A stretch of DNA of 64,000 nt, taken from assembly GCA_028534125.1 (NCBI GenBank), contig CM052816.1, positions 74,960,001-75,024,000 on the forward strand. The letters are read 5' to 3'. Origin of the DNA: Lama glama (lineage: Eukaryota). A model generated the notes under the pieces. That model was not told the origin of the DNA and did not search any database. It was given only the letters and a program-made list of their open reading frames with translations. Below are positions 18,798 through 56,615 of the stretch, one piece after another. The translations under genes were made by a program, and so were the position numbers. Numbering within the stretch: position 1 is the first letter of the stretch; every line of letters begins with the position of its first letter.

Positions 18798-20705
18798 CTG
18801 GGAAAGTCATTTGAGAGATTAGAATTAAAAATGTAAAAAGAAACCTGGTGATTAAGATTGTAATAAATTCCTTTTGCAACATTAAACATTCTCCCTCCTT
18901 ATTTAATGGCTATCCTTAGAAAAGCCAATTATCACTAATACAATCCTCATTTCATTGGCACTTCTATCTCTTTTTTATCTATAAAGCCAGCCCAAACCCA
19001 CCCTCAAAAAGAATTATTTTTAAAGAATTGTTTAGGTCAATGTGTTACTCCTTCTGAGGTTCTCTTTAAGATGTCTTTGAGAATCTAATCTATATTGACA
19101 GAACCTCTCCCAGAACATACACCCCATATTCCACATACAATTTCAGAGTACTCAAACACTCCCTCAGTCCCATCCATGAACACAGCTTTTATTCTGGGGT
19201 ATATTCTAGGATCAATGATATAGTTCATAAATTTCTACAAGAGTGTAGAGATGATCCTGCATAATCATGTCCCTGAGAAGCCATTTAATTCTAAATTACC
19301 AAAGATGTTAAATTATATCCAAGATGCCTTATGTTACCAGGAAAAAGAAATACACTGCAGGATGTTCATCAAAAGCTGAAAGCATTCTTATTATGGAATA
19401 AGGCAATGTTATATAATTAAACATTTATGACACATAAAGTACATTAATTTGATATAAAAACAAATAGACCTACAACTGTAAAGATCTGGGGATAAATTAT
19501 TGACTTTGTACAACTCAGCAAAGTCTTTAAGCCTCAGTTTGCAAAAATCAGGATTCCACATGCCCTACTTATTTCATGGAATTTTCTTAAGAAGCACATG
19601 AAATAAAAATATAAAGTGCTATTAAATTATATAACTAACTTCTTAAAGTCACTAGAATACAGATAAATGATCTATCCTATTAAACAGGTACTTGTGTGAT
19701 TTGAAAAGTTTACCTCAAATAAACAAGCATCATAATCTCAGTGCTCACCTAACGCAGCTCATCAGAAATGACTAAAATAGTATCAGAGACATAGAAATAG
19801 AAGCAAAATTCAACTTCCAAAACTGTTATAGTTTCTATTGCCTTGAATCTATTACAAGCTTTTTATAGTCTCAGGGTGTGTCCCTACAGCTATCCCCTTC
19901 ACCTCACCTCAAATTCAGCTTAAAAATAGTAGCAAGAGAAGAACAAGCTTAGCAAGAGCTGATTCATTGTATCAACATAGGAGTTAATCATTTAAGAGCA
20001 GAAGCTGAGGCTTGCATTCATAAAAGTATGATAGGCTACTCTACTAATTATGCTTTCTATGTACAGAACGACTCACTCAATGAGCATAATGTATATTACA
20101 AATAATCATTTCTTTTCACTTTATTCCTTCATAGTTAAAAGATCATAAACCTCAGAGAAAATGCTGGACTAGCATTAGATGTTATTCAGAATATAAAGAG
20201 AAACGGACCTAGAACTGAAAAGATCTGGGTGTAAATCACTGACTTTGTGCAATTCACCAAAGCTCTTTAAGGCTGTTTGCAAAACTCAAGATTCCACATG
20301 CCCTACTTATTTCCAAATTAACAAAATTCACTGCAGAATTACATTTCATTAGATACGGCATTTCATTGAATGCATATCCTTTTTCATTTTTGTGATCCTA
20401 CACTCTTAATTATTCCTAAAAAGACTGGTGGAGGGGAGTAAGGAGATAGAAGTAAAACTGAAGGGAAGGCCGAACTTTTAAACACTTGACTACAGCCTTG
20501 GGAGGAGGAACTGAAATGAGTTCCCCCAGTGAAGCCACTTGTAAAAGATGAAGAGTGTTTGCTTAAGGGAGATTTGGGATCCAACATATGCCCAACTCTA
20601 AAAGTACCTCATTCTTTTTGTTAACAAGGATTGACTGCTGAACAAGAAACACAGATACCCTGTGGGAAGGTGTTTCTAGGGAGAGAATGAATAGCTGTAT
20701 GCTGA

Positions 20706-22728: not shown

Positions 22729-22857
22729 GGGAGAGGGTATTGCTCAGAAGATCCTGGGTTCAATCCCCAGTACTTCCATTAAATAAACAAACAAACAAAC
22801 AAACCTAATTACCTACTCCCTCAAAATAAATAAACAAAAATTTAAAAGTGAAAAACA
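22729..22857 (+). mobile_element. tRNA-Ala-derived camelid SINE (Vic-1 type), internally deleted, with 15-bp TSD
   Basis: GGGAGAGGGTATTGCTCAG...CCTGGGTTCAATCCCCAGTACTTCCATTAAAT...CCTAATTACC and an A-rich tail. TSD AAAAGTTACTTCCAG at 22714-22728 and 22858-22872, preceded by TTT. Confidence 0.88.
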
Positions 22858-44194: not shown

Positions 44195-45257
44195 TAAAAA
44201 GACCAGCCATATGGAATGGGAGAAAATATTTGCAAATGATGCAAATGACAAAGGTTTAATTTCTAGAATATATAAACATCTCATACAACTTAAGAAAAAA
44301 AAAAAGCAACCCAATCCAAAAATGGGCAGAAGACCGAAACAAGCAATTCTCCAATGAAGACACACAAATGGCTATTAGGCACATGAAAAAATGCTCAATA
44401 TCACTAATTATCAGAGAAATGCAAATCAAAACTACAGTGAGGTATCACCTCACACAAGTCAGAATGGCTATCATTCAAAAGTCCACAAACGATAATTGCT
44501 GGAGAAAAGGGAACCCTCCTACACTGTTGGTGGGAAAGTAGTTTGGTGTAGCCATTGTGGAAAACAGTTTGGAAATCCCTCAAAAAACTAAAAATAGACT
44601 TACCATATGATCCAGCAATCCCACTCCTGGGCATACATCTGGAGGGAATTCTAATTCGAAAAGATACATACACCTCAATGTTCATAGCAGCACTATGTAC
44701 AATAGCCAAGACATGGAAAGAACCTAAATGTCCTTCAGCAGATGACTGGATAAAGAAGCTGTGGTATATTTATACAATGGAATACTACTCAGCTATAAAA
44801 AAGAATAAAATAATGCCATTTGCGACAGCATGGATGGATCTGGAGACTGTCATTCTAAGTGAAGTAAGCTAGAAACAGAAAGAAAAACACCATATGTCAC
44901 TCAAATGTGGAATCTTAGGGAAAAAAAAAAAAGAAGACACTAATGAACTTACCTACAAAACAGAAACAGATTCACAGACATAGTAAACAAACTTATGGTC
45001 ACTGTGGGGAAAAGGAGTGGGAAGAGATAAATTGGGAGTTTGAGACTTGCAAATATTAACTACAATATAGTTATATAAAACAGATAAAAAAACAAATTTC
45101 TTCTATATAGCACAGAGAATTATATTCAATATCTTGTAGTAGCCTATAATGAGAAAGAATATGAAACTGAATATATATATATATATGACTGAAACATTAT
45201 GCTATACATCAGAAACTGACACACTGCAACTGACTATATTTCAATAATAAAAAAAAG
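44195..45257 (+). mobile_element. 5'-truncated younger L1 (ORF2 C-terminus + 3'UTR + A tail)
   Basis: ORF 44555..44872 ([16 protein letters not shown]...[20 protein letters not shown]...[13 protein letters not shown]) is the canonical L1 ORF2p end; A-rich tail at ~45243-45256. Confidence 0.95.
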
Positions 45258-53745: not shown

Positions 53746-53892
53746 TTTATTTTTTTTAATTCTTTTTTTGGGGGGAGGGGGGAGGTAATTAGGTTTATTT
53801 ATTTTTATTTTTTAATGGAGGTGCTGGGGATTGAACCTAGGACCTTGCGCATGATAAGCATGTGCTCTACCACTGAGCTATACCCTCCCCCC
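53746..53892 (-). mobile_element. Full-length tRNA-Ala-derived camelid SINE (Vic-1 type) with 16-bp TSD
   Basis: Minus strand: GGGGGAGGGTATAGCTCAGTGGTAGAGCACATGCTTATCATGCGCAAGGTCCTAGGTTCAATCCCCAGCACCTCCATTAAAAAAT...CCTAATTACC. TSD CTTCTCAGTAATTTCT at 53730-53745 and 53894-53909. Confidence 0.92.
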
Positions 53893-54728
53893 ACTTCTCA
53901 GTAATTTCTGACTGTTTATAATGATGACACCGATAATCAGCTGAAAGAAAGGAATAGAATTCCTGACAAGTCTGCACTATGTAGGTTTGTTTCTTATGAA
54001 CCTGAAAAACCTCTCTAGGTCTGTAGGGGAAATGAGCTTTCTTCTGACTTCCTCTCTGTAGGATTCATGTTTCTCAGTCCATGGATAAATAGTTCAGGAT
54101 GACCTCACCACGCAGACAGATTCTTTAATTTCCTTCCTCCTCCTGCTAAGGCTCTGACTCTTCACTCTTAACTAGAGATATGACAGTAGAGTTCTTCATG
54201 AGAAAATAGGACCTCATCCAGGTTTGTTGTATATAAATGATGAAATAGAAGTAGTATAAGATCAAGGACTTTTAAAAAACACAGAGAGGAGTATATTGTG
54301 ATAGAAGGCCAAACCTGGGACCTGGTCTTGCTTTAACAGTGTTGGGAAAGTTACAAGATCCAAGCTTCAGAAACTTGACCTTGTAAATTGAGTTGGTTGG
54401 ATTAGATATCTGTGTTTTTCTCTTCTCTGTTTTCTCGGAGATAATCCTCAACTTTATTTTATGATTCTATGTGTTGGCCTATTTATTCAGGCTCTCAAAC
54501 TTTTCATTTCTAAGATTAAAAATGTATTTATGTGTATATGAGTGTCTTAAAGCAGAGTCAAATAACGCCTTGCTACTTGAGAGGAAAGAGGAGAAAGCTG
54601 TTTGTGGCCCAAACCCTTTCCTTTCTATCTCTGCCTCTGCTTATTTTCCTGGGCTGTGTTGCTAGGATATACTGACCTCCTCCTCTGACCTTGACCAAGG
54701 TTGAAATTTAAAGGGACAAAGGTCATTT

Positions 54729-55092
54729 TTTGGGTGTATATATATGTTTTTTTTTTTAATTGAAGTATAGTCAGTTTACAATGTTGTGTCAATTTCTGGT
54801 GTACAACATAATGCTTTAGTCATACATGAACATACATATGTTCGTTTTCATATTCTTTTTCACCATAAGTTACTACAAGATATTGAATATAGTTCCCTGT
54901 GCTATACAGTATGAACTTACTGTCTTACCAGATTTTCTGAGAATCCTACTGTATTTCAAAGCGAGAGACATCTTGCCAGAGTTCAGTAGGTGTTCTGTGC
55001 GATTCAGTGGGTTTGTAGATGTACTTCTTGGTGTATTTGTGGGAGAGGGCGAGCTGTGAGTCTCTCTACTCCGCCATCTGGCCCCACTCCCT
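54729..55092 (-). mobile_element. L1-derived mini-element: L1 5' terminus (~174 bp) fused to L1 3' terminus and tail (~190 bp), with 16-bp TSD
   Basis: Minus strand begins GGGAGTGGGGCCAGATGGCGGAGTAG (L1 5'-like, YY1 core) and ends with L1 3' text plus an A tail. TSD GGGACA(A/G)AGGTCATTT at 54713-54728 and 55093-55108. Confidence 0.82.
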
Positions 55093-55440
55093 GGGACAGA
55101 GGTCATTTGAGCAACCTCTATCTTTGCGGGCTACCTGCTTGCTTTCACTCTTTCTCCAGGGATCACAGATGACATAGAGTTGGTTGGATTAGTTGGTTGG
55201 TTCTCTTATATAATAGAAGATATTGATCACAAGGGGATTCTGGTGATAATCTGTGATAGAGTATGTCCATCCTGCTCTTAAGATGAACTGTTTATAGCCC
55301 CACTTTTTCAAAGATGAGGTAGCAAAATTATTCTTATATGTATATATATGTGTGTATATATATATTGAATAAATTACTGTACATGTAAAGACATATCTCC
55401 AAATAATTTTTCACTTAAAAAATGTTTTTTAATGTTTTAG

Positions 55441-55549
55441 GGATGTGTTTCCTACTTTTCAATCAGCACACGTTGCCATACTAAATTTTATACGGATCCA
55501 GTGGAAGCTGTAAAAGACATTCCTGATGGTGCAAAGATACTGGTTGGTG
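55441..55549 (+). CDS. OXCT1: OXCT1 coding exon 2 ([36 protein letters not shown])
   Basis: Acceptor TTTTAG|, donor G|GTGAGC; 109 bp; manual translation. Confidence 0.96.
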
Positions 55550-56615
55550 GTGAGCAATAGTATTGTCTTCCTTTTTATGGTGACATCCTTGTGTTTTTAG
55601 CAAAGCAGAGAAATCACAATGGGGACATATGTAGATTAGAAATGCCAATTATTTTATTACTCAGTTATTGTTTTATTCATTATTTTAAAATTTATGACAT
55701 ATAACATCTATTATTTTATTATACTGTCCCCTTCCTGAAAGTTCTGCAAGCTTAGCCCTCTGTATTTTACTTTTTCTTTTCTTTTGTGTTTCTTTTTCTA
55801 TTATTTTGAAAAATGGGAGCTTAAAATGGTGATGTCTTAATAGTAGCTTTGAAAAATCCCTGGATCCTTGGGAATTCTGTTTAGCTTAGAATGTTTGCAT
55901 TGCTCTCATCAACACACACTTAGCCACTCCTTTCGTTCCTCCTCATTAGATGAGATAGAGAGCACATGTACATCTGTCTGTTATTCAGCCTCCCAAGTTC
56001 TGTTGCTTCTTTTTGTTCGGAATGTCTGTTAGAACCACTGTCTCACATTCATTAAACTTGCTGCCTGATTCTTACACATTTCTTTGGATTTTTAGGCCTT
56101 GGTCATAAAAGTCAAGGCTTATTTTTAGGGCGGCTTTTCATTCATTCATTCAGCTGATCAGTCTTTGAACATCCATTTTAAACCCAATACCATTTGAGGA
56201 GTTGTGGCAGATGTAAAGAGATGAAAGTCATTGGCCTAGACTTCCAATTCTGCAAAATCTATTCAGGCATATAAAACAAACATGCTTGAAAAAGTGACAT
56301 ACAAAGGTTGAATTTTAAAGTGACACAGTAATAGCTGTGTCGTTAAGTGCAAGAACAACATGTAATCATATTAACACATTGCACTTGGCTTTATTCTTAG
56401 GACTCAAGGACGTGGCAGTGATGTCTGGTGCTATAAAATGATGTAAAACTTTTGAATACAGCTGTATGACCGTTTACTGAATTTCTGAGATATATCTGCA
56501 TTTTGCTTAATATGTCTGATAATGCATTTTGTATTTTTTCTTTTTTATTAAAAAGAATAACACACACATTTCCTTGAAAGAACATTATCCCCTTCAAAAT
56601 TGTTTATCTTTTTGA

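Follow-up and report, generated by a model that had tools for sequence, protein, structure and literature searches.

The DNA analysed here, a window of 64,000 nucleotides from Lama glama (GenBank assembly GCA_028534125.1, contig CM052816.1, positions 74,960,001 to 75,024,000 of the forward strand), carries on its minus strand a gene-less L1 element of 364 nt (55092-54729), in which 170 nt of an L1-type 5' end are joined to about 190 nt of an L1 3'UTR and a tail. We favour, with a probability of about 0.58, the reading that this copy descends from a spliced L1 RNA: the coding middle would have been lost as one intron, the remainder mobilised by the proteins of another L1, and the junction altered at a later time.

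At the level of its architecture, the element had been described in the initial annotation as a mini-L1 that retains both termini, has no ORF and lies within a single TSD. This description was confirmed when the TSD, the two halves and the absence of ORFs were checked. The TSD copies, located at 54713-54728 on the 3' side of the element and at 55093-55108 on its 5' side, are 16 bp long and identical at 15 of the 16 positions, as had been claimed; as estimated from base composition, a pair this similar would arise by chance among 40 x 40 border positions with a probability of ~4e-5. The empty site rebuilt from these borders reads TC/AAAT in the sense of the element and agrees at four of six positions with the endonuclease consensus TT/AAAA, as this consensus is given in section 4 of PMC5860796. 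The longest stop-free sense frame has 72 codons, which bears out the absence of ORFs. The 3' part, whose L1 3'UTR end occupies 54923-54758, carries an ATTAAA at 54760-54755, and the tail (54757-54729) is composed of (i) 11 As (54757-54747), (ii) 15 non-A bases (54746-54732), which might be a short 3' transduction or a decayed portion of the tail, and (iii) three As. Taken together, the sequence of the element supports an L1 origin of both halves and their insertion in a single event.

For comparison with other copies, we used contigs from six of 23 listed public runs: four DNA runs from four organisms (X1, X3, X8 and X10) and two RNA runs (X15 and X17), the small-share runs X19-X23 being left out. 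The initial annotation had proposed that the 3' half is homologous to the ends of two L1s of the window, and this proved correct: 54748-54911 is 80% identical to the L1 end at 45.1 kb and 78% identical to that at 27.4 kb. The 3' half can be assigned to L1 because the homologous element at 45 kb codes for the terminal part of LINE-1 ORF2p, as shown by the match of window positions 44552-44869 to this protein (E 5e-38); Pfam returned no match for this ORF2 piece, nor for an exon-like stretch described below. In addition, the loose ends of contigs behind 54923 continue as L1 3'UTR in 260 contigs of X1 and 209 contigs of X10.

From its sequence, the 5' half very likely represents an L1 5' end. When metagenome contigs were scanned with a pattern, seven loci were obtained (L001-L007), which we regard as mammalian L1-type 5' ends in metagenome contigs. 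When the first 200 nt of the element were compared with them, six of the seven (L001-L004, L006 and L007) scored above the best of 100 shuffles, with 62-65% identity; L005 contains just part of the region. These six loci share an AT-rich flank and a purine run at the start, followed in five of them by the motif AAGATG, and they run on as GC-rich sequence for up to ~1.2 kb. The assignment of the 5' half to L1 made in the initial annotation is therefore upheld as far as the alignment to the starts of long GC-rich repeats is concerned; on the other hand, none of L001-L007 and none of the matches to looser patterns or to an ORF2 query reached ORF1, and the name L1 5'UTR rests in part on the L1 anatomy that we assume. 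The looser patterns gave eight loci and the ORF2 query one, none of which resembles the element beyond the seed; searches of plasmids, and of viral contigs and genome contigs with a 22-letter pattern, gave nothing useful. One contig from a viral collection (L016, 3191-3511) carries an L1 ORF2 end at 65% identity and is probably host DNA.

This 5' end is present in high copy in the four DNA runs. Copies that stop matching at 54923 and then continue as A-rich sequence account for 17 of the 119 contigs in X1 and 14 of the 122 in X8, and the same stop and continuation were found in the RNA runs (4/32 in X15 and 6/50 in X17); the A-rich continuation resembles that of the metagenome loci. Close to the start, at element positions +13 to +21 (55080-55072), a motif scan identified the core CAGATGGCG, which lies one mismatch from the YY1 motif and is YY1-like by sequence. 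It is overlapped by an A-box-like stretch with one mismatch (+17 to +27), and a scan of the element with the box motifs found no B box within one mismatch. Rfam gave no match inside the element and a single weak one in the flank (E 0.72).

Junctions of the same type occur at other loci. The segment formed by element positions 1-164 (55092-54929) equals the 5' exon of the spliced class, and its end at 54928/54929 is spanned, with a minimum of 31 letters to either side, by at least 19 of the 32 records listed; these records have single-copy depth and differ from the window copy by 11-16% substitutions. They display nine patterns of length and indels, of which two pairs perhaps represent one locus each, and thus correspond to seven to nine loci, a number to be taken as a lower bound for the class. 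Three of the bridging patterns carry 280-775 letters past the 5' end that are unmatched to this locus, and several recur in two to four organisms. The indel content varies between bridging records, and pieces of the unspliced type have 0, 2 or 10 gaps; these differing indels weakly fit an origin from several source L1s. The recurrence of the junction at many loci, which the initial annotation had regarded as indicative of a mobile family, is found for the class junction (at least seven to nine loci) but not for the exact junction of the window copy, encountered only at its own locus. Uniqueness of the junction, which the initial annotation had named as a refutation, therefore holds for the window copy and not for the class. 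Contigs joining the flank of this locus to the 5' end of the element were recovered from all four DNA runs with 0-1 differences, indicating that the insertion predates the split of these four organisms.

Joins of the spliced type represent 22-38% of the summed depth at 54928, a measure that is not usable as a copy number. Among the matches listed, they are no commoner in RNA (4/32 and 3/50) than in DNA (up to 8/122), and contigs of the RNA runs X15 and X17 cannot in any case demonstrate expression, splicing or strand. Other joints were found with the same 3' end and 5' breakpoints further upstream (54918 to 55058 and 54918 to 55036); one such joint reads as a join at 55011 with three shared bases and constitutes an even shorter mini-L1. 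The 54918-to-55036 joint and the 55011 join show that non-splice joins also occur.

Where it can be read, the class join connects the donor CTG|GT exactly to the acceptor AG|ATAAAC. The donor, CTG|GTAAGA with its GT at 54928-54927, agrees with the U1-type consensus at seven of nine positions. The 3'UTR consensus upstream of the join, built from the loose ends behind 54923 with an agreement of 0.63-0.66, contains TACTAAC, a first AG located 18 nt past the branch A, and then ATAA. The background chance of a GTRAG together with a branch motif followed by such a first AG is ~1e-5. Three observations speak against splicing: the pyrimidine tract of the acceptor is nearly absent, in the two older L1 3' ends of the window another AG follows soon after the branch-like motif, and the two non-splice joins mentioned above use other 5' breakpoints. 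The 5' exon passes straight into the 3'UTR (i) at 54925 in four contigs of X8 and one of X15, (ii) at 54931 in four contigs of X8 (mixed consensus), three of X15 and two of X17, and (iii) at 54951 in a single contig of X17, which reads CTG|ATAAAC in full; among the rows listed, X1 is of the unspliced type at 54931. The exon ends in CCA in the 54931 group, and this ending and CTG would both go back to an older CCG through CpG decay. The letter expected from splicing at 54928 was counted in 15, 16, 13 and 9 contigs of X1, X3, X8 and X10, respectively, and the expected gap of 1 nt at 54924 in 10, 13, 13 and 9, these counts being made per position and not established for the same contigs; the junction letters themselves are readable in few contigs, partly of mixed consensus (agreement 0.70-0.84).

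Since the other loci join precisely at splice signals, the class is likely composed of retrocopies of spliced L1 RNA, that is, of L1 RNA minus both ORFs removed as one intron, and in this respect would represent an extreme form of the SpIREs described in human. Among the explanations listed in the initial annotation, that of a spliced integrant is thus supported for the class by the exact GT-AG joins and by the branch motif at other loci. A GT is also present at the homologous donor place in all seven metagenome 5' ends; it was read from the sequence, the best-scoring donor being an upstream GT in five of the seven. From the conservation of this GT, related L1 lineages may be able to undergo this splice as well.

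The window copy departs from this pattern at its junction. The initial annotation had placed the join at 54918. We moved it by about 4-5 nt, to 54923, as 54920 has the majority letter among the covering contigs and 54919 is a private change: the match to the unspliced 5'UTR ends at 54923 and that to the 3' end starts at 54923-54922, with an overlap of 1 nt (A, 54923). The copy therefore keeps the donor bases GTAAGA (54928-54923) and enters the 3' exon 4-5 nt past the AG used by the other copies. Compared with the spliced form, it shows G instead of A at 54928 and one additional base at 54924, both of which are the letters of the unspliced 5'UTR. In those other copies of the class whose junction letters can be read, GT and AG lie exactly at the breakpoints, whereas the window copy retains the GT and misses the AG by 4-5 nt. 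Alternative canonical splice pairs for the window copy were considered and ruled out, as the unspliced 5'UTR after 54923 is A-rich and not GT. The exact junction was found in one of the 122 contigs of X8, in none of the 119 of X1 and in none of X15 or X17. In X8 its depth is 29.8, with one record at least 99% alike, which was taken as this locus and reaches 54906. The exact junction looks single-copy in this count, from which some records had been filtered; the lack of such a contig in X1 and a gap in cover at 54728-54751 carry no evidential weight.

Nonetheless, neither breakpoint is more than 6 nt away from the corresponding splice site of the class. The chance that a random pair of positions does so is 2e-4 for ends of 800 x 1000 nt and 8e-6 for an element of 6.5 kb, and this proximity ties the window copy to the spliced class. 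As splicing removes the GT that this copy has retained, the junction was likely altered afterwards. If the divergence is 5-8%, the chance of three changes within 13 nt is 2-8%; because two of the three restore unspliced letters, copying from an unspliced 5'UTR is favoured over plain mutation. The window copy is accordingly treated as a member of the class, and is not filed as a SpIRE proper, as its junction is not the exact splice junction.

The sequence of events that we favour would be as follows. Full-length L1 RNA would at times be spliced from +164 to the 3'UTR, which would remove both ORFs, and the short spliced RNA would then be reverse-transcribed in trans with the proteins of another L1. 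Later, a tract would have been copied at the join from an unspliced 5'UTR, running 6 nt past the donor and rejoining where GTAAGA and ATAA-A match imperfectly. The same result could be produced by two point changes at the join. Conversion by an unspliced 5'UTR, at a rate that is a guess, would be the likelier of the two. By analogy with human SpIREs, each mini copy would probably be a dead end.

The main rival places the origin of the junction in reverse transcription itself. The reverse transcriptase, acting in cis on an unspliced L1 RNA, would have jumped from ~190 nt inside the 3' end to ~+170 through the same imperfect match of GTAAGA and ATAA-A, with no splicing involved. A single private substitution at the join is then sufficient, the retained GT is directly explained, the exact junction looks single-copy, and another copy does join at 55011 within a stretch of 3 shared nt; template switching during TPRT is moreover discussed as a route to L1 chimeras in the available text of bioRxiv 10.1101/2025.02.02.635956. 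However, the exact overlap is just 1 nt, a commonplace match shared by 198,011 of the 800,000 5'/3' position pairs tested, and a jump leaves unexplained why the two breakpoints are so close (within 6 nt) to splice sites that other copies use. We consider this explanation possible but doubtful. The same coincidence with splice sites weighs against the proposal that a full-length L1 was inserted and lost its interior later by deletion at the DNA level. Such a deletion would leave the TSD intact, and it is compatible with the retained GT and the single-copy junction; yet the 5' end is at this site in all four organisms, of which X8 alone yielded the short junction and thereby documents the short form, and we rate this as the least likely option, with very little probability.

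The mini-L1s might also form a self-amplifying, SINE-like family, founded by one or a few spliced copies that kept enough promoter, with the YY1-like start, to be transcribed and recopied, the window copy being a mutated or recombined member. The element has an intact 5' start and 3' end, and the 22-38% share of spliced-type joins is high next to the ~2% given for human SpIREs in section 7 of PMC5860796. That share is nevertheless one of summed depth, in which long homology favours the matching of bridging contigs, and a 360-nt RNA, by escaping 5' truncation, could increase this ratio even if no master copy existed. Furthermore, the indels vary between the bridging copies, and according to the available text of PMC5860796 promoter activity is weak in those human SpIREs from which 5'UTR sequence has been lost. 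The element is also without a B box, so that the classical Pol III form of the SINE-like option raised in the initial annotation is unsupported. We therefore hold the family explanation to be quite improbable. A bolder proposal is that a splice from the L1 5'UTR to an acceptor in the 3'UTR, driven by the branch point, gave rise to a gene-less parasite of L1 whose own copies serve as the source of new ones. It would be a bipartite non-autonomous LINE of the L1 clade, a kind absent from the 2018 survey, and the GT-retaining copy would record exchange with the 5'UTRs of full-length L1s; this proposal is in our opinion unlikely. Descent from a spliced RNA with a later change at the junction thus remains the reading that we prefer.

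Regarding its position, the element is located, in antisense orientation, ~330 nt upstream of an exon-like stretch (~55441-55551, plus strand) that matches succinyl-CoA:3-ketoacid CoA transferase (OXCT1; E 2e-8), and from this arrangement it is probably intronic. The exon-like stretch has KIL where the human chain has TVL and possibly belongs to a diverged paralogue. The promoter of the OXCT1-like gene may correspond to a CpG island found at 48-50 kb. The element is flanked by a direct repeat of ~20 nt (54387-54407 and 55174-55200, 787 nt apart), the right-hand unit of which is accompanied by a short tandem copy, and a local duplication of ~125 nt with 85% identity is found at 19452-19575 and 20191-20313, 739 nt apart. 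The locus of the mini-L1 itself is probably inert.

If the favoured reading is true, an L1 lineage possesses a donor and a perfect branch point through which the cell deletes the two genes by a single splicing event, and the spliced leftovers still get copied into the genome. Two questions would then become testable: whether splicing restrains L1, as raised in the available text of PMC5860798, and whether L1 yields ORF-less parasites with two ends, which are absent for the L1 clade from the survey in PMC5786205, as far as its available text goes. Junction-shifted copies such as that of the window would show repair or recombination of mini elements with full-length L1s.

We compared the element with known short derivatives of retrotransposons. 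The tRNA-derived SINE located nearby (53746-53892, minus strand), of which a related copy, flanked by a separate TSD, is found at ~22729-22856, is likewise short, non-coding, A-tailed and flanked by a TSD; the head of the mini-L1 is in contrast an L1 5' end devoid of a B box, whereas the SINE has perfect A and B boxes. HAL1, as presented in the available part of PMC5786205, is also a non-autonomous L1 derivative but keeps ORF1, while the mini-L1 has no ORF. A likeness is also seen with SIDEs, bipartite non-autonomous LINEs devoid of ORFs, such as Bov-A, RIME, NARTc, R2 SIDE and Persaeus: in the available texts of PMC5786205 and PMC6740152, these are made up only of the non-coding 5' and 3' termini of a LINE, exist in several copies and depend on the parent LINE. 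The window copy likewise has just the two termini of a LINE and no ORF. Short internally deleted elements are called rare in the part of PMC6740152 available, and in that of PMC5786205 (Kojima, 2018) ORF-less bipartite LINEs are reported only from RTE, Ingi, Vingi and R2, and not from L1. However, SIDEs are ascribed in these texts to internal deletion and amplify as families, whereas the junction of the mini-L1 class follows splice signals.

The closest relatives are human SpIREs, which, according to the available text of PMC5860796 (Larson et al., 2018), are retrocopies of spliced L1 RNA and amount to ~2% of full-length human L1s. As in the human elements described there, the 5' start is intact, a donor is located in the 5'UTR, and a TSD (15/16 in the window copy), an A tail (A11) and an endonuclease-type site (TC/AAAT) are all present; many human SpIREs are antisense in introns, as the window element also appears to be. 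In the human SpIREs of that text, however, the splice either stays inside the 5'UTR or leads into ORF1 and the greater part of the element is preserved, whereas in the mini-L1 the acceptor lies in the 3'UTR, both ORFs are gone and all proteins would have to be provided in trans; the window copy differs further by its retained donor GT. A class joining the L1 5'UTR to the 3'UTR is not described in the literature searched, which took in few subscription journals and neither Repbase nor Dfam, nor in the available text of the camelid survey PMC8605555. Relative to this literature, the class is best described as a new form of SpIRE-like retrocopies, with a likely 5'UTR-to-3'UTR splice.
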